Shown: piece after piece, positions 38,593-60,197 of the stretch
Layout: every line of letters starts with the position of its first letter
How positions within the stretch are numbered: position 1 is the stretch's first letter
Sequence record: OP557970.1
Source of the DNA: Escherichia phage ph0021
DNA length: 64,000 nt
Direction: 5' to 3' (one strand)
The notes under the pieces: model-generated
The model's database searches: none
Seen by the model: the letters and a program-made list of their open reading frames with translations, nothing else
Told to the model about the DNA's origin: nothing
Program-made: the position numbers and the translations under genes

Positions 38593-40686
38593 TTATCCTT
38601 GAACGAACTTGTAAGGCATGTTTGTAATATCTATGCAAGACGCAATAATTCCAAGAGATGATTCTACTTTCTGTTTAATATTTGATGAAACAAATGATGC
38701 AAAGTCAACTCTGTCTTCTATTTCAATATCACCTGTCATTGCAACCAATTCACCAGTTTCCATTAAATGGTCTCCATCATAGATTACCGATTCGGTGAGC
38801 TCTTCCGTGGTCATAACTTCAGCTTGAATGAGTTTTGTATTATTAGATGTTGTTCCGTCATTATTAGAAGCATCGGTTATTTTATTAACTTTGACCATCA
38901 ATCCACGCGGTAGAATAACTTCAGCTTCTGTTGCTATTCCGAGACTTCCTGGATATACAACATTAACTTTATGAGCTCCATCAATTGCCCATCCTATTTG
39001 AACTTTAACATATTCAGGATTTTCTTTATACGCTCTTATTTCGTTTGGATTAATAGTTATTCCTTCTTCATTTTTATCAACTGTTAATTCATTGCGAGCT
39101 TCTGGTTCTAAAAGACCAATACCAGCATGTGTGATTCCAAAACGTCCAAAAATGATAGGAGTTAAAGAAGTAGATACAAAATTTCTGAAGTAGAACACTT
39201 TATTTTTAACTAACGCTTCATATATAGGAGCAGTCATACTTTGAGCACGATAAACTGTAATGCCTTCTGGTATACGGTCACCATTTTCAAAAGCTGAATC
39301 TAAGTTATTTATAGCAGATTCAATTTCTTTTTCACTCATTACATCGTATCGTTCTGGATTGTAACGACCTAAAAGAAGATTATTGATGTCAGTATATCCT
39401 GAACCGCAATATTCTCTAATGCCACGCTTTTGTGATGGAGTATATTTAGAACCATCGCGGGCAATAGTAATATCAATCATTGGACCAGCACCAATTCCAG
39501 AAAAACTGTAAATCATTCGTTTGAGGAATTTAGTTTTTGCTGCGTTCCAGGAATTTTTAGTTATTTCTTCCCAGACTTCATCTGGTTGTCCTTTACGATT
39601 TTTATTATGATTAGCAAGCCATTTATCTTTATAATCTTCAAAGAATTGATTTACAGCTGCTGCGTATTTCTCTAAACATTTTATTGAAGTAGTTGGTTCA
39701 TTTTTAATTGCATTAAAAATTACTTCTTTAATTTTTTCTGAAACTTCACCGACTTGACTCATTGGAAAGAATTTATAATCATAGTGAAGTTCATCTGCCG
39801 TTCCTTCAGCAATAATTTTTGCTGCCTTTGTTTTAGAAGCTAATGAATTAATTCCAATTTTCATTTCTTCTGCTTCGGGAATTAAAGGTGCAGTAGCTGG
39901 TTTATTAAAATTGGCTGCTGTAGATTCATACTTCTGGAATAATTCACTTTCAAATCTAGAAGATTCCAATGACTGACTTTGTGCAATTGCTCTACGGGAA
40001 ATTTTAACTTTAACGATTACAGCTTGGTCAGAACGTTTATCATTTTCTTGTGCAATAGATGCTGCAATTGCTTCATTTTTAGTTACTTGAGCTCCAGTAT
40101 CTTTATTGATATAAACATCACCGACCTTCGATTCAACTTTAGTAAAGAGTTCAGTGCTAATTTCTGGAACTCCTGGAATGTCTTCTAATGATACATTTTT
40201 GCGATGTATAAGAATATATGCATACTTTTTATCGTAATCCCAGAGTTCCTTAAGAAGGACGTATCTGCCACCTGAACGACTACGGATAAGTCTATCAGCA
40301 ATAACTTGAATTTGTCGAGCTTGGCCAGCAGTTTTAGACTTAAGAATACGAAGCATGCAGGCATCAATTTTATATTGACGCATCGTTTGCATTGCAACAG
40401 TAAAAACTGAATTGATATAATTAATTGGGCTTGGACCAAGACCTTTTAATTTAGCAATTGAGCCTTTAGCAGTTAATGTAAAAGGAACAATATGCATCAT
40501 TTTATCGCCCATCTTTAAATCGCGATTAGTATCACCTCCAGATGTATAGGTACATAAACGAAAGCCTGGTTGTTCAATTGCATCATCAACATGAACTGAA
40601 AAAATTTGTGGTATTTTCTTCTTTGGATTTAAGTTTGTAATCGGAAGAGTAGTATCTTCGTCAAATAATTCTGTAATAAGTTCCAT
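38593..40686 (-). CDS. alt: Alt, head-packaged mono-ADP-ribosyltransferase
   Basis: 697-aa ORF starting MELITELFDEDTTLPITNLNPKKKIPQIF; motifs VYRAQ, FVSTSL, TEAEVILPRG; late promoter upstream. Confidence 0.9.
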   Translation of the reverse strand: MELITELFDEDTTLPITNLNPKKKIPQIFSVHVDDAIEQPGFRLCTYTSGGDTNRDLKMGDKMMHIVPFTLTAKGSIAKLKGLGPSPINYINSVFTVAMQTMRQYKIDACMLRILKSKTAGQARQIQVIADRLIRSRSGGRYVLLKELWDYDKKYAYILIHRKNVSLEDIPGVPEISTELFTKVESKVGDVYINKDTGAQVTKNEAIAASIAQENDKRSDQAVIVKVKISRRAIAQSQSLESSRFESELFQKYESTAANFNKPATAPLIPEAEEMKIGINSLASKTKAAKIIAEGTADELHYDYKFFPMSQVGEVSEKIKEVIFNAIKNEPTTSIKCLEKYAAAVNQFFEDYKDKWLANHNKNRKGQPDEVWEEITKNSWNAAKTKFLKRMIYSFSGIGAGPMIDITIARDGSKYTPSQKRGIREYCGSGYTDINNLLLGRYNPERYDVMSEKEIESAINNLDSAFENGDRIPEGITVYRAQSMTAPIYEALVKNKVFYFRNFVSTSLTPIIFGRFGITHAGIGLLEPEARNELTVDKNEEGITINPNEIRAYKENPEYVKVQIGWAIDGAHKVNVVYPGSLGIATEAEVILPRGLMVKVNKITDASNNDGTTSNNTKLIQAEVMTTEELTESVIYDGDHLMETGELVAMTGDIEIEDRVDFASFVSSNIKQKVESSLGIIASCIDITNMPYKFVQG

Positions 40687-53938: not shown

Positions 53939-55117
53939 TTAAAAGTATTTTTTAAAACTCATCATAACTTTATCATCAACATCATTATCAATCTGTGCAA
54001 CAAGGTAAGATGACAATTCTACTTCTTGTGGCGCAGATTGAACATTATCAGAATTAAGATATTCACGAATCCAAGGATATGGATGTTTAACCGGAGCATC
54101 GGTAATTGGGCATGGAAGACCACACTGTTTCATACGAGATACAGTTAAGTAATCAATAAAGCTCCACATGCTATTTGTATTTAATCCAGGAACATCGCCA
54201 TCTTTAAATAAATGAACTGCCCAGTCTTTTTCCTGGCGGTTAACTTCCATGAAAATATCAACTGCTTCTTGTTCACACTCTTGAGCAATTTTAACCCATT
54301 CATCGCCATCAGTACCGGATTGAAGCTGACGAATAATATATTGGGTGCCTTTAAGGTGAAGCTGCTCATCACGTGCAATGAACTTCATAATCTTGGCATT
54401 ACCTTCCATGATTTCCATGTTCTTATGGAAGTTAAAGGTACATGCAAAAGATACATAAAAACGAATAGCTTCCAATGCGTTGATTACATGCAAACAGAGG
54501 TAAAGAGATTTCATTAGCTCACGCTTCCAATATGTCTCATGCTCAATAGCATCTTCAATAACGTCTTCGTCTGCATTAATTTCTTTTTGGTATTCGATAT
54601 CAGCTTTAGCGTTTTCCCAATAACGAGTTTTAGTCAGAACATCATCATAATAACGTCCAATGGATTCAGCACGTTTCATAATAGCTTCATCTAATACAAT
54701 CTCATCAAATACCTTTGACGGATCAGTATAAAGATTTCGCATGATATGGGTATATGAACGGCTGTGAATAGTTTCACTAAAAGTCCATGTAGCAACCCAT
54801 GTATCAAGACTTGGGTCTGAAATTAACGACATAAGTACAGCAGACGGTGCACGACCTTGAATGCTATCTAGAAGTGATTGATACTTCAGGTTATTAGTAA
54901 AAATATCTTGCTGATATTGAGGAAGCTTGTTAAATTGCGCAGCATCCATCATTAAGTTTACTTCTTCAGGACGCCAGAAAAATGACAACTGCTTTTCGGT
55001 TAAATCTTCAAAAACTTTATGACGTTGAATATCGTAACGCGCAATACCAAGACCTGAACCGAAGAACATAGGTTCTTTTAAAACATCAACTGGATTTGTA
55101 TTAAAAACTGTAGACAT
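53939..55117 (-). CDS. nrdB: ribonucleotide reductase small subunit NrdB, uninterrupted (no intron)
   Basis: 392 aa from MSTVFNTNPVD; continuous reading frame; TAATG overlap with the mobE stop. Confidence 0.93.
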   Translation of the reverse strand: MSTVFNTNPVDVLKEPMFFGSGLGIARYDIQRHKVFEDLTEKQLSFFWRPEEVNLMMDAAQFNKLPQYQQDIFTNNLKYQSLLDSIQGRAPSAVLMSLISDPSLDTWVATWTFSETIHSRSYTHIMRNLYTDPSKVFDEIVLDEAIMKRAESIGRYYDDVLTKTRYWENAKADIEYQKEINADEDVIEDAIEHETYWKRELMKSLYLCLHVINALEAIRFYVSFACTFNFHKNMEIMEGNAKIMKFIARDEQLHLKGTQYIIRQLQSGTDGDEWVKIAQECEQEAVDIFMEVNRQEKDWAVHLFKDGDVPGLNTNSMWSFIDYLTVSRMKQCGLPCPITDAPVKHPYPWIREYLNSDNVQSAPQEVELSSYLVAQIDNDVDDKVMMSFKKYF

Positions 55118-55848
55118 TAATTTTTCCTCTTTAAAATTCTGCCGCGTTTCCAACCTGGCGGTATAATATCATCTTTACCTATAAGCGTGCATTCACTTCC
55201 ATTATTAATCCATTTCTTACCGCGGATTCCTTTATAATCTCTTGGCTGTATTTTGTCAAACTTTGCGTCAAGCTGATATGCCCATCGAAATCCATAGGCA
55301 TATTGAAATTTACCCTCAGCACAATATTTGATATTTGACCCGTTTCCATTAACTGACCTGGACGCTGCGGCAATAGAGTGAAAGGTTTCTATGAAATCCC
55401 CATCTAATGAGAATTTATGTATTTCGATAGATGGGCATGCATACCTATTCACATTTGATACATGTTGTTTAGTTTCGTTTTTATGATGCTTGCCTAACAT
55501 TCCTCTAGGATGAGGATTATTTTTCCAATATTTCTTAAAGAAATCAGAATTAGCTTTAGCAAATAATTTTCTGTGCAAGCTATACAATCTGTTATTAATT
55601 CTATTACCAGCTTTATCTGTTGCCATTAACGTTAACGCAGAGGCAAGACCAAAATGGCCTTCATTTATCTTGCATAGTAATAGATGCGCTATAAAATGTT
55701 CTCTAGCTGTTAATTCAACTAAATTTTCTTTATCATCAGAACCTCCCATGCATTTAGGGACTATATGATGTGTCTCTTTATATTCGGATAAAGGTTCCCG
55801 AGCCTGAGCTCGGGAAATTAGGTCATTATAGATTTTTTGATAATTCAT
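55117..55848 (-). CDS. mobE: MobE-like HNH homing endonuclease between nrdA and nrdB
   Basis: 243-aa ORF with classical HNH motif ETHHIVPKCMGGSDDKENLVELTAREHFIAH. Confidence 0.85.
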   Translation of the reverse strand: MNYQKIYNDLISRAQAREPLSEYKETHHIVPKCMGGSDDKENLVELTAREHFIAHLLLCKINEGHFGLASALTLMATDKAGNRINNRLYSLHRKLFAKANSDFFKKYWKNNPHPRGMLGKHHKNETKQHVSNVNRYACPSIEIHKFSLDGDFIETFHSIAAASRSVNGNGSNIKYCAEGKFQYAYGFRWAYQLDAKFDKIQPRDYKGIRGKKWINNGSECTLIGKDDIIPPGWKRGRILKRKN

Positions 55849-58112
55849 TACAATTTACACGCTGCACAATCGTCGGCTTTAGGAGTTTCTATTTCATAAT
55901 CATCAGTACCAGAACCATCACGGGTATTATGATAATAGAAATTTTTAATGCCATAATACCATCCGTATAGCATGTCATCAATCATTATTGACATTGGAAC
56001 CTTTCCTTTTGGAAAAATCTGCGGGTCATAATATGTATTCGCTGAAGCTGATTGACATACCCATTTCAGCATAATAGCTACCTGCGTAAGATAAGGTTTA
56101 TTACCTTTCTTAGCTAATTTCCATGTATAATCATAGAGGTCTATGTTATGCTCAATATTGGGCACGACTTGATTAAAGGAACCCTCTTTTGATTCTTTAA
56201 CAGAGACTGGTCCACGTGGAGGCTCGATACCGTTTGTACTGTTAGAAACTTGGGAAGATGACTCACATGGCATAAGTGCTGATAATGTGCTATTACGGAT
56301 GCCAAAGAGCTTAAGGTCTTCCCGCAGCGCCGACCAGTCACAAACGTATTTTGGAGCTGCGATTTGGTCAATCTTTTTATTGTACCAGTCGATAGGTAAT
56401 TCGCCTCGAGACCAACGAGTGTCTGAATAATATTCGCAAGGTCCTTTTTCTTTGGCGAGCTTAATGGATGCTTTAATGAGTCCATACTGTAATCTCTCAA
56501 ATAGTTCATGTGTTAAATCGTTAGCATCTTCATAAGAAGCAAAGTTACTTGCCAGCCAAGCTGCATAGTTAGTAACACCTACACCGAGGTTACGACGCTT
56601 TTTAGCTTTTTCTGCTTCAGGAACTGGATATCCTTGGTAATCCAAAAGATTATCAAGAGCACGAACTTGGACTTCTGCCAATTCATTAATTTTATCTTGG
56701 TCTTGCCAGTCAAAATTATCCAGTACGAATGCAGAGAGAGTACACAATCCAATTTCAGCATCAGGACTATTCACATCATTTGTTGGAATAGCAATTTCAC
56801 AACACAAGTTACTCTGACGAATAGGTGCCTTTTCACGAATAAACGGAGTATAATTATTCGTATTATCGATGAACTGCACATAAATCCTTGCTGTTCCTGA
56901 GCGTTCAGTCATGAGCAATTCAAATAGTTCACGGGCTTTAATGCGCTTTTTACGAATATTAGGGTCTTTTTCTGCTGCTTCGTATAATTCGCGGAAACGG
57001 TCTTGGTCTTTAAAATAAGAATAATAAAGCTCGCCACCCATTTCATGCGGACTGAACAAAGTAATGTAGTCGTTCTTTCCAAAACGTTCCATCATCAAAT
57101 CATTCAGCTGGACGCCATAATCCATATGACGGATACGGTTTTCTTCTACACCTTTGTTATTTTTCAAAACGAGAAGATTTTCAACTTCCAAATGCCAAAT
57201 AGGATAATAAGCAGTAGCAGCGCCGCCACGAATTCCACCCTGTGAGCATGATTTAACAGCAGTCTGAAAATGTTTCCAAAAAGGAATAACACCAGTATGG
57301 CGTACTTCACCCATGCCAATCTTGGAACCTTCGGCACGAATCATACCAACGTTAATACCAATTCCAGCACGTTTGGAGATATATTCAACAATTGAAGCGG
57401 AAGCCTTATTGATAGACTTTAATGAATCACCTGCCTCAATAACAACACATGAACTAAACTGTCGAGTCGGAGTACGACAACCAGCCATAATAGGAGTTGG
57501 TAATGAAATCTGTCGAGTAGATACTGCTTCATAAAAATGAATAACATGTTTTAATCTATCAACAGGTTCATCTTGATGCAATGCCATTCCAATAGTCATA
57601 AATGCAAACTGTGGAGTTTCATAAATTTGACCAGTGGTTTTATCTTTAACTAGATATTTTTCTTTTAATTGCATCGCCCCGGAATAAGTAAATTCCATAT
57701 CCCGCTCATGCTTAATTTTTGATTCTAAAAATGTAATTTCTTCTGCTGAATATTTTGACAATAATTCAGGGTCATATTTACCTTCATTTACACAGTAAGA
57801 AATATGGTCAATAAATGAACATGGTTCATACTGTCCGTACACATGTTTACGAAGAGCGAACATTAGACAACGTGCAGCTACATATTGATAATCAGGCTCT
57901 TCAACCGAAATAGAATTCGCAGCGGCCTTAATGACAATAGTCTGAATATCATCAGTTGTCATTCCATCACGGAGATAAGATTTAATATTTTCATATAATT
58001 CATAAGGATCGACTGATGTTCCTTCAGCTGCCCAAGATAAAACTTTAATAATTTTTTGTGGGTCAAAGCTCTGAGAAACACCACTACTTTTGATAACATT
58101 AATTAATTGCAT
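55848..58112 (-). CDS. nrdA: ribonucleotide reductase large subunit NrdA
   Basis: 754-aa ORF, T4 NrdA length; conserved class Ia features and C-terminal CxxC. Confidence 0.95.
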   Translation of the reverse strand: MQLINVIKSSGVSQSFDPQKIIKVLSWAAEGTSVDPYELYENIKSYLRDGMTTDDIQTIVIKAAANSISVEEPDYQYVAARCLMFALRKHVYGQYEPCSFIDHISYCVNEGKYDPELLSKYSAEEITFLESKIKHERDMEFTYSGAMQLKEKYLVKDKTTGQIYETPQFAFMTIGMALHQDEPVDRLKHVIHFYEAVSTRQISLPTPIMAGCRTPTRQFSSCVVIEAGDSLKSINKASASIVEYISKRAGIGINVGMIRAEGSKIGMGEVRHTGVIPFWKHFQTAVKSCSQGGIRGGAATAYYPIWHLEVENLLVLKNNKGVEENRIRHMDYGVQLNDLMMERFGKNDYITLFSPHEMGGELYYSYFKDQDRFRELYEAAEKDPNIRKKRIKARELFELLMTERSGTARIYVQFIDNTNNYTPFIREKAPIRQSNLCCEIAIPTNDVNSPDAEIGLCTLSAFVLDNFDWQDQDKINELAEVQVRALDNLLDYQGYPVPEAEKAKKRRNLGVGVTNYAAWLASNFASYEDANDLTHELFERLQYGLIKASIKLAKEKGPCEYYSDTRWSRGELPIDWYNKKIDQIAAPKYVCDWSALREDLKLFGIRNSTLSALMPCESSSQVSNSTNGIEPPRGPVSVKESKEGSFNQVVPNIEHNIDLYDYTWKLAKKGNKPYLTQVAIMLKWVCQSASANTYYDPQIFPKGKVPMSIMIDDMLYGWYYGIKNFYYHNTRDGSGTDDYEIETPKADDCAACKL

Positions 58113-58429
58113 AAGTCCTCAACTTGAAAATCGTCTTTAAACAATCGGTTAACTATATGAGCTATTATATCACCATGACACGGCTTTGGTTTACATGTGC
58201 ATCCTAGCCTCATTCCACGTAAAGGCTCTAAATGTGCTTTAGTTATTTCTCCGGATTTAATTCGACGTATAAAATCTTTTTTGAATAATTCAATGGCAGC
58301 CTCCCGGCTGCCAGCATCTTTACCGACGTAATTTCCCCAAAATGTACCACGGTGAATATTAACATCAAAGTCGGATTTATATTTATTCACTACTCGGCAT
58401 ATACGGCCTGCGCGGTTGTAGGTGTTCAT
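58103..58429 (-). CDS. hypothetical protein (nrdA.1 position)
   Basis: 108-aa ORF overlapping the nrdA start. Confidence 0.6.
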
Positions 58430-58646
58430 ATTGTTCTTCCGTTAAAACAGTAATATCGTAGTAACAGTCAGAAGAAGTTTTAACTGTGGAAATTTTATTA
58501 TCAAAATACTCACGGGTCATTTTATGAGTATAATATTTTTTGCCATAAATGATAATAGGCTGATTTGGTCCTGGAACTTCTAACTCGCTTGGGTTAGGAA
58601 GTGTAAAAAGAACTACACCAGAAGTATCTTTAAATCGTAAAATCAT
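58383..58646 (-). CDS. hypothetical protein (nrdA.2 position)
   Basis: 87-aa ORF. Confidence 0.55.
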
Positions 58647-58669: not shown

Positions 58670-58981
58670 TTACACCGCCATTTTTCCTTTCAAGACGCCG
58701 TGGGACTGATAATCTTTGAGAACGAAATCTTTAGGCCTGAGTTTAAGAATGTATTCCAATTGTTCTTTAGTAGAAAGATAGCGGAATTTATAAGGCAATC
58801 CGCCTATTATCAGTTCACAAAGCTCTTTAGGTTCACGACGCAAAATTTCTTTACATTGTTCTACGTGATTCATATAGATATGAGTATTACCGCCAGAAAA
58901 TATCAAATCTCCAGGAATAAGATTACACATCTTAGCTACAATATGAACTAACGCAGCATATGATGCAATATTAAATGGAAG
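58670..58981 (-). pseudogene. td: thymidylate synthase td, exon 2 only (exon 1 absent)
   Basis: Encodes LPFNIASYAALVHIVAKMCNLIPGDLIFSGGNTHIYMNHVEQ...KGKMAV, the conserved ThyA C-terminal region; no N-terminal ThyA coding sequence anywhere upstream. Confidence 0.85.
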
Positions 58982-59128
58982 CATTATGTTCAGATAAGGT
59001 CGTTAATCTTACCCCGGAATTATATCCAGCTGCATGTCACCATGCAGATCAGACTATATCTCCAACTTGTTAAAGCAAGTTGTCTATCGTTTCGAGTCAC
59101 TTGACCCTACTCCCCAAAGGGATAGTCG
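58982..59128 (-). mobile_element. 3' portion of the td group I intron (catalytic core up to the 3' splice site)
   Basis: Minus-strand sequence ...GGGTCAAGTGACTCGAAACGATAGACAACTTGCTTTAACAAGTTGGAGATATAGTCTG...GGGGTAAGATTAACGACCTTATCTGAACATAATG, recognised as the T4 td intron 3' end, abutting exon 2. Confidence 0.8.
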
Positions 59129-59380
59129 TTAGGCATTTATGTAGAACCAATTCCATTTATCAGATTTTACACGATAAGTAACTAATCCAGACGAAATTTT
59201 AAAATGTCTAGCTGCATCTGCTGCACAATCAAAAATAACCCCATCACATTCATCTTCCCATCCCATATCACGTAAAAGATGTTCAGCTTTTTCAACGAGT
59301 TCAGAATCTTTACCAATGATATTAAAATACCATTTACCTCTAACTTCTGAATCTTTGATGCTCTGACGTTGTAATCTCAT
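59129..59380 (-). CDS. chimeric ORF: unknown 44-aa N-terminus fused to the C-terminal DNA-binding segment of I-TevI
   Basis: C-terminus CDGVIFDCAADAARHFKISSGLVTYRVKSDKWNWFYINA matches the I-TevI C-terminal HTH region; the GIY-YIG catalytic domain is absent; early promoter and AAGGAG ribosome-binding site upstream. Confidence 0.75.
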   Translation of the reverse strand: MRLQRQSIKDSEVRGKWYFNIIGKDSELVEKAEHLLRDMGWEDECDGVIFDCAADAARHFKISSGLVTYRVKSDKWNWFYINA

Positions 59381-59405
59381 TTTATTCTCCTTAGTTGATA
59401 GGGTA

Positions 59406-59435
59406 ATAGTATCACACTACTACCCTTCCGTAAAC
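59406..59435 (-). promoter_or_regulatory. early promoter driving the I-TevI-tail chimeric ORF
   Basis: Minus-strand GTTTAC-N18-TACTAT followed by AAGGAGAATAAA-ATG. Confidence 0.5.
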
Positions 59436-59800
59436 TACTTTTTGAAAGTTTTTCGCAAAAGTTCAATGATTTCATCTACATTGTTTTCGTCTACAATGCA
59501 GTGAATTTTTGTTACGCCAGAAATCTTGTCTTCGACTTCATCTTCTTCAAAAGTCGATTCTTTATACTCACGAAAACAATGAAATTCATCTTCACAGACG
59601 TTGAAGTAAAAATGCTTTCCATTTGCGCATTTAATGTGTTTTATTACTCTAAATCCATCAGCAGAGAAAGCTTCTTTAACTTCAAACCATCCGCCATTAT
59701 CTCGAATAATTTTAACTATTGATGAATTAGAACGTGGGCGATAATTAATAAATGTATCAATAAGTCTTGGAACAAGCTCATACTTTTTGCCAATATACAT
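59435..59800 (-). CDS. hypothetical protein (frd.x position)
   Basis: 121-aa ORF with GAGGA ribosome-binding site. Confidence 0.55.
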   Translation of the reverse strand: MYIGKKYELVPRLIDTFINYRPRSNSSIVKIIRDNGGWFEVKEAFSADGFRVIKHIKCANGKHFYFNVCEDEFHCFREYKESTFEEDEVEDKISGVTKIHCIVDENNVDEIIELLRKTFKK

Positions 59801-59844: not shown

Positions 59845-60096
59845 TTATTGTTCAATCAGTCCCATGTAAAATTCTGCGTCTTCAGAATCCATGCCATCAC
59901 AATATTCATTAGCCATAAAGCGGGTGAGGTCTTCAAGAGGACCTTCAATGACAATAGAAAAATTGCAATAATTGGGATCATCATGAATACTTGTGATACT
60001 AAGTTCAGGATAACGATTACGAATAATTTCTTCAATATATTCAAAATCAACGATGTCAATATCAACTTTAGCCATATTATTTTCCTCTTTAATCAT
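59845..60096 (-). CDS. hypothetical acidic protein (frd.x position)
   Basis: 83-aa ORF downstream of the gene 32 terminator, with a candidate early promoter. Confidence 0.55.
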
Positions 60097-60118
60097 CAGC
60101 AGTATTGCCGATAGTTGT

Positions 60119-60148
60119 ATAGTACCATAAAGCTTTATGCTTGTAAAC
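60119..60148 (-). promoter_or_regulatory. candidate early promoter downstream of the gene 32 terminator
   Basis: Minus-strand GTTTAC-N18-TACTAT upstream of the 83-aa ORF. Confidence 0.4.
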
Positions 60149-60178
60149 CGTTTTGTGAAAAAATTTTGAAATAAAAAA

Positions 60179-60197
60179 GGGGACCTCTAGGGTCCCC
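60179..60197 (-). terminator. intrinsic terminator of gene 32
   Basis: GGGGACC-TCTAG-GGTCCCC hairpin followed on the - strand by a TTTTTT run, 23 nt after the gp32 stop. Confidence 0.7.

Follow-up and report, generated by a model that had tools for sequence, protein, structure and literature searches.

The frd-td locus of a Tequatrovirus isolate has very probably been collapsed by a recent deletion between short repeats

Introduction

In the T-even phages in which the frd-td locus is intact (T4, RB3 and T4_ev151), the genes follow one order: nrdA - nrdA.1 - nrdA.2 - td - frd - frd.1 - frd.2 - frd.3 - 32. Deletions between short direct repeats are the classical route by which T4 loses DNA: the spontaneous rII deletions arose in this way, and laboratory deletions between genes 63 and 32 remove frd together with td. 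A homing endonuclease damaged by a deletion is also on record in T4, where the annotation of I-TevIII, encoded in the nrdB intron, reads 'defective ... deletion in proximal half'. Both frd and td belong to the quasi-core genes, which can be circumvented depending on the host (PMC2993671). The DNA-binding region of I-TevI, the endonuclease of the td intron, is tripartite, with a zinc finger and a minor-groove helix as well as a helix-turn-helix, and it contacts 20 bp centered on the intron insertion site (PMC2988022).

Here, we describe a frd-td locus reduced to td exon 2, the td intron's 3' end and a C-terminal piece of I-TevI, the last fused in frame to the beginning of frd.1. As read from the assembled records, this is very probably a genuine, young deletion between short repeats in a Tequatrovirus isolate, with loss of dispensable genes.

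Results

Genome context of the locus

The window, by which we mean the whole 64-kb stretch of DNA that was analyzed, was 100% identical to Pseudomonas phage PsgM02F (OR584013.1) as the reverse complement, running across the ends of that record. The PsgM02F record comprises 165,282 bp, and its first and last 127 bp are identical; thus, the assembly closes into a circle with 165,155 unique bp. The 127 bp that match both record ends lie at window positions 40361-40487 and indicate a circular sequence (k=127 overlap), though the paper states that circularization was impossible; the break in the record falls within a duplicated alt-like gene region. Around the locus, this Tequatrovirus has the gene order nrdB - HEG - nrdA - nrdA.1 - nrdA.2 - [collapsed locus] - frd.2 - frd.3 - 32 - segG - 59. 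The features of the locus and its neighbors, in window positions, are as follows:

58383..58646, - strand: nrdA.2, the intact left-hand neighbor (gene order)
58670..58981, - strand: td exon 2, the C-terminal third of thymidylate synthase, 103 codons (58981-58673) and stop (58672-58670) (PF00303 and alignment)
58982..59128, - strand: 3' end of the td group I intron, 147 nt, reaching from the stop codon of I-TevI as far as the 3' splice site (RB3 and T4 alignment)
59129..59380, - strand: in-frame chimera Frd.1(1-47)::I-TevI(207-245), 83 codons, annotated as a hypothetical protein (WYA84158.1 / WAE77568.1)
59129..59249, - strand: I-TevI codons 207-245 and stop, the helix-turn-helix end of the DNA-binding domain (39/39 with T4 I-TevI)
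59241..59249, - strand (read 59249-59241): deletion junction at the 9-bp repeat ATGTGATGG (RB3 and T4 alignments)
59241..59380, - strand: frd.1 codons 1-47 of 80 (47/47 with T4 Frd.1; DUF5417, PF17438)
59387..59435, - strand: native frd.1 signals, GTTTAC (59435-59430), a 17-nt spacer, TACTAT (59411-59406) preceded by TG, and AAGGAG (59392-59387)
59435..59800, - strand: frd.2, the intact right-hand neighbor, 121 aa, a private allele (PF03197, E 1.6e-30)
59845..60075, - strand: frd.3, intact (PF05798, E 6e-38)

The Frd.2 protein was only 64% identical to that of T4. Just 3' of the gene 32 terminator, a 72-bp stretch (window 60110-60181) includes a promoter-like site, TTTACA-17-TACTAT with TG; the stretch is present again with 100% identity at PsgM02F 71422-71493 and, at about 78 to 89% identity, in at least four further copies (PsgM02F 128187-128259, 57060-57122, 97669-97725 and 124552-124615), and it appears from these matches to be a dispersed promoter-bearing repeat. 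Between nrdA and nrdB, a 243-aa ORF annotated as a homing endonuclease (window 55117-55848), with a weak match to the tail of TIGR01453, occupies the position that mobE and nrdB.1 take in T4. Both nrdB and nrdD are contiguous and free of introns in the PsgM02F genome, so the td intron stump would be the sole trace of a group I intron in this phage.

Junction and extent of the deletion

The preliminary description, made from the window alone, proposed that the frd-td locus had been collapsed by a deletion and called for an alignment to T-even frd-td regions for endpoints and microhomology. Alignment against RB3, T4, T4_ev151 and vB_EcoM_11B_SA_NWU resolved both breakpoints to the base and confirmed the collapse: measured against RB3, T4_ev151 and T4, the missing segment spans 3,005, 2,651 and 2,059 bp, respectively. 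Gone are the 3' portion of frd.1 and, varying with the relative, one to three small ORFs, as well as frd, td exon 1, the intron's 5' portion and I-TevI codons 1-206. The genome of about 165.2 kb, plus some 2.7 to 3.0 kb, would reach the 167 to 168 kb usual in relatives.

At the junction lies the 9-bp repeat ATGTGATGG, common to frd.1 (codons 45-47) and I-TevI (codons 207-209) and encoding Cys-Asp-Gly in both. The frd.1 side reads ...GAAGATGAATG(C/T)GATGG followed by ATG..., the I-TevI side reads ...TTTCATGTGATGG followed by GGTT..., and the window reads ...GAAGATGAATGTGATGGGGTT... across the junction. RB3 and T4 frd.1 carry ATGCGATGG at the position of the repeat, and the closest frd.1 allele in the database, that of vB_EcoM_11B_SA_NWU (98.5% identical over 200 nt), has exactly ATGTGATGG; thus, the parental repeat probably matched perfectly at 9 of 9 positions. 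A junction placed at random would show a match of 9 bp about once in 4^9, so we consider the deletion homology guided, and because the Cys-Asp-Gly codons are common to both genes, the in-frame fusion was forced.

The event would have been slippage during replication or illegitimate recombination between the ATGTGATGG copies in frd.1 and I-TevI; the repeat is the sole indicator of the mechanism, and either slippage or break repair may have been the route. The event would have removed the 3' part of frd.1, any neighboring small ORFs, frd and td exon 1, and also I-TevI codons 1-206 and the 5' intron part with the operator and promoters of I-TevI. Left behind are a 3' intron stump that is presumably dead, a td exon 2 that presumably cannot be translated and an in-frame chimera under frd.1 signals.

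td exon 2 and the intron stump

The - strand td exon 2 that had been proposed at 58670-58981 was recovered at exactly these positions, matching only profile positions 176-266 of the 266 in Pfam Thymidylat_synt (PF00303), with an E value of 1.2e-23. It scored below every NCBIfam thymidylate synthase cut-off (76 bits versus a cut-off of 108 for TIGR03284). The N-terminal catalytic 183 residues are missing, and with them the full-length fold and its catalytic cysteine. Compared with exon 2 of T4_ev151, 102 of 103 amino acids are identical, and a single nucleotide differs (58810, A versus G), which changes Val to Ile. An ATG at 58984-58982 makes the exon resemble a gene of 104 codons; it is the last 3 nt of the td intron and no gene start, and td exon 2 is presumably not translated as a gene.

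GenBank labels window 58670-58984 (WYA84159.1) 'thymidylate synthase', though it is an exon 2 fragment only. A second GenBank 'thymidylate synthase' of 246 aa (WYA84074.1, PsgM02F 98794-99534) lies between imm and a glucosyltransferase gene; it is the sole other ORF of the thymidylate synthase family in the genome, scores 48 bits versus a cut-off of 327, and from its position and synteny we take it to be the gene 42 dCMP hydroxymethylase paralogue. With these labels on an exon 2 fragment and on the gene 42 paralogue, the annotation makes the genome look td positive, although td is absent.

Upstream of exon 2, the roughly 150 nt described earlier as the 3' core of the td intron proved to be a stump of 147 nt that is 100% identical to RB3 and has one mismatch to T4. 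The covariance check proposed for it did yield a match to Rfam Intron_gpI (RF00028; 39.3 bits, E 6e-8), but this lies below the gathering score of 50 and in the same range as the intact td intron of T4_ev151, which scored just 42.5 bits as a control. The Rfam score cannot separate an intact from a truncated intron here because the I-TevI ORF splits the intron core, and a search of the whole window at gathering thresholds returned no Rfam match. Good pairing in the stump was confined to model positions of about 139 to 253, and positions 1-66 of the model aligned onto coding sequence with noncanonical pairs. Thus, the 3' core elements and the 3' splice site are present, as judged by identity to RB3 and by the well-paired part of the model. 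The 5' splice site with P1/P2 and the 5' strands of P3 to P6 are absent, frd.1 codon 47 being joined to I-TevI codon 207; the 5' intron segment of relatives had no match anywhere in the PsgM02F genome, and of the two exons that should flank the intron, exon 1 is missing genome-wide. Lacking the 5' splice site, the 5' core strands and exon 1, the stump should be unable to splice.

The chimeric reading frame and its expression signals

The ORF at 59129-59380 had been described as ending in about 40 residues of the I-TevI C terminus, and this was confirmed: residues 45-83 equal I-TevI 207-245 at 39 of 39 positions (tblastn E 1e-21). The tail matches positions 16-51 of 51 in PF20987 (E 8e-24), so that the last 36 of the 51 domain positions are kept, and it is identical to residues 76-116 of the chain in PDB 1i3j (E 4.5e-23). 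The first 44 residues had been called unrelated; they are indeed unrelated to I-TevI, but the first 47 residues of the ORF are identical to T4 Frd.1 at 47 of 47 positions (E 3e-28). In DUF5417 (PF17438), the N-terminal part covers positions 1-59 of 91 (E 1.2e-14), and the ORF falls short of the full-length Frd.1 of 80 aa.

As had also been proposed, the ORF is free of the nuclease: I-TevI residues 1-206 are deleted, and no Pfam match to the GIY-YIG catalytic domain was found in the chimeric ORF. The linker with the zinc finger and the minor-groove helix lies within the same deleted residues. The C-terminal helix-turn-helix module, whose boundary we take to be at about residue 204, is retained by sequence (PF20987 and 1i3j), and the chimera thus keeps only the helix-turn-helix end of the tripartite DNA-binding region. 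Of the homing site, the exon 2 half remains, with the exon 2 start CTTCCATTTAATATTG at 58981-58966 next to the stump; the I-TevI operator and the exon 1 half have been deleted from the genome. An AlphaFold2 model of the 83-aa chimera, computed from the single sequence without an alignment, had a pLDDT of 42.7, too low to be informative. Judged from these sequence features, specific and useful DNA binding by the chimera is unlikely.

Upstream of the ORF, an AAGGAG (59392-59387) sits 6 nt 5' of the ATG, and a GTTTAC-N17-TACTAT site with TG (59435-59406) matched 8 of 12 positions in a consensus scan, which did not list it because the threshold was 9 of 12. The stretch with these signals is nearly identical upstream of RB3 frd.1, with one mismatch, in the promoter spacer. 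The preliminary description credited the ORF with an early promoter and a ribosome-binding site of its own; both sites are present, but since the 5' part of the ORF is frd.1, they are native frd.1 signals, conserved at RB3 frd.1.

Genome-wide search for the lost enzymes

It had been proposed that no N-terminal half of ThyA and no DHFR-like ORF exist up to gene 32 and that the phage lacks its own thymidylate synthase and dihydrofolate reductase, a reading that an intact frd and td exon 1 elsewhere in the genome would have overturned. We searched the whole rebuilt PsgM02F record (165,282 bp), and both proposals held across the 165-kb genome. In tblastn searches of it, td exon 1 was not found (best E 2.2), and Frd/DHFR gave no homologous ORF (best E 0.003); a Frd-like match at PsgM02F 65644-65904 was rejected because it runs antisense to annotated genes and stop codons break its frame. 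All genome-wide matches to the ThyX motif (RHR-x7-S) lay in frames filled with stops, and none was open. When the deleted DNA of five relatives was compared with the genome, only short repeated promoter-like elements of about 60 to 85 bp matched.

The genome keeps cd, tk, gene 1, a gene 56-like gene, a gene 42-like gene and nrdAB. By its own enzymes, the phage should be unable to make dTMP from dUMP or to recycle dihydrofolate. With td and frd lost, it would depend on host ThyA and FolA, as established T4 biology suggests, and its DNA synthesis should be sensitive to thymine limitation or to antifolates acting on the host. Such dependence should be tolerable, td and frd being dispensable members of the quasi-core.

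Age, distribution and the two deposits

Over the 610-bp remnant, which extends from the deletion junction to nrdA.2, 609 positions are identical to the intact locus of T4_ev151, with no pseudogene decay. The sole difference, at 58810, is the one candidate for a change after the deletion. A single nucleotide difference in 610 indicates that the deletion is young.

Among 50,697 phage records, the two flanks are joined only in PsgM02F, and the 33-mer spanning the junction was absent from IMG/VR and JGI metagenome contigs. The chimeric protein forms a cluster of one among approximately 15 billion proteins, with WAE77568.1 of Escherichia phage ph0021 (165,155 bp) as its only recorded accession, and the exact 121-aa Frd.2 allele is otherwise found only in ph0021. 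One candidate for sharing the deletion, vB_EcoM_WL-3, named as the genome closest to ph0021, was rejected because in that genome nrdA.2 and gene 32 are still about 4.6 kb apart, with frd in between. Other relatives were compared by megablast, in which td exon 1 was found in 533 records and exon 2 in 473, counts too poorly comparable for a tally of other td-less relatives.

Phage ph0021 (vB_EcoM_Uniso21, OP557970) was isolated on E. coli from veterinary-hospital wastewater in December 2021 (PMC9692438), and the same laboratory afterward described PsgM02F as a 2022 isolate from coffee leaves, obtained on P. syringae pv. garcae IBSBF-158 (PMC10815195), a strain that ph0021 was reported not to lyse (PMC9692438). 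Thymidylate synthase and dihydrofolate reductase are mentioned in neither paper (PMC9692438, PMC10815195). The 165,155 bp of ph0021 equal the PsgM02F record minus its 127-bp end overlap. PsgM02F and ph0021 probably represent a single E. coli phage that was named twice because samples were mixed up or cross-contaminated; as two deposits from one laboratory, and maybe from one stock, they are not fully independent.

Discussion

We weighed the deletion against other ways in which such a record could have arisen. The preliminary description left room for a laboratory deletion strain, and frd-td deletions have long been isolated in T4. An engineered T4 or one with a classical deletion in the 63-32 region is nevertheless extremely unlikely here: the flanks are 84 to 93% identical to T4 compared with 96 to 99.8% to wild isolates, Frd.2 diverges from its T4 counterpart to the extent given above, the junction shows a natural repeat and no engineering scar, and the source is a Brazilian wastewater or coffee-leaf isolate of 2021-22 (PMC9692438, PMC10815195). 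It is also very improbable that the stock carries an intact frd-td locus that was collapsed by the assembler, or that a mixed stock yielded a minority variant. Both genomes are short-read assemblies, and the uniqueness of the junction among the 50,697 phage records would fit an artifact. However, a 9-bp repeat cannot mislead a de Bruijn graph at k=127, the junction lies inside a contig whose ends join through the 127-bp overlap and that was read polished, no leftover frd or td exon 1 sequence is present in the record, and the same chimera is encoded by the second deposit (165,155 bp), although that deposit may come from the same stock. That the deletion was positively selected, for example because it disposed of a homing endonuclease that was toxic or costly, evaded a host factor sensing Td or Frd, or was an adaptation to enrichment in rich broth, we regard as very unlikely. 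In the stock or stocks that were sequenced, the deletion seems to be fixed, and enrichment in rich medium offers ample host dTMP; against selection, there is no recurrence in roughly 500 to 700 related genomes that keep the locus, the remnant shows no signs of age at 609 of 610 identical positions, and T4 variants with derepressed I-TevI show no effect on viability (PMC2988022).

A further question is what the fusion does. It could be a functional new gene, producing early in infection a nuclease-free protein that binds td homing sites on the exon 2 side or binds I-TevI operators, such as those of coinfecting phages. The in-frame fusion, the native Shine-Dalgarno sequence and promoter-like site, the DNA-binding domain's intact helix-turn-helix end and the persistence of CTTCCATTTAATATTG beside the stump agree with such a role, and the I-TevI DNA-binding domain alone can repress (PMC2988022). 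However, only 36 of 51 Pfam positions are left, the 20-bp contact is no longer complete, the zinc finger and minor-groove helix having been lost, the operator and the exon 1 half of the homing site have been deleted from the genome, the fusion is confined to one lineage, and an open frame, which has a one in three chance of arising, was here imposed by the common codons; we consider this role very unlikely. Highly unlikely as well is the more specific idea that the chimera, expressed early from the frd.1 promoter, interferes with I-TevI binding or with expression of the td region in coinfecting intron-carrying phages, as an accidental antihoming or regulatory factor. If true, it would show the capture of homing endonuclease DNA-binding modules by host ORFs. 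Most likely, the chimera is a by-product without a selected function, where the absence of function is an assumption, as the translation signals are strong and the frame is intact.

The scientific weight of the locus is modest. It identifies a phage of the T4 genus, propagated and published as a therapeutic or biocontrol candidate, that does without its own thymidylate synthase and dihydrofolate reductase, and it gives a clean, base-resolved example of how a short-repeat deletion inactivates a mobile intron along with the homing endonuclease in it and the gene that hosts both. Additionally, it corrects database entries in which 'thymidylate synthase' stands on a nonfunctional fragment and on the presumed gene 42 paralogue, and it flags two differently named phages from one laboratory as probably the same virus.

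Set beside the described systems, this is an ordinary, recent and private deletion of dispensable genes and not a new system. Relative to the intact T-even locus, 2.1 to 3.0 kb are missing; the intron should no longer be able to splice, and the locus encodes no enzyme. In the sequences that were kept, namely td exon 2, the 3' end of the intron and the tail of I-TevI, identity to RB3 and T4_ev151 is 99.8 to 100%. I-TevIII of T4, the nearest analogue as a crippled intron endonuclease, is likewise an endonuclease crippled by an internal deletion, with its remnant within a T-even nucleotide metabolism gene; however, the T4 nrdB intron splices and nrdB is functional, whereas here the intron core and the host gene were also destroyed. 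Most descriptions of absent quasi-core genes concern distant relatives, for instance cyanophages (Petrov et al. 2010, PMC2993671), and here the absence occurs within the T4 genus. The classical T4 deletions have the same kind of short direct repeat junction, the same loss of dispensable genes and the same viability of the phage, but here the carrier is a recent environmental isolate that was not selected in the laboratory, and the deletion created an in-frame chimera.
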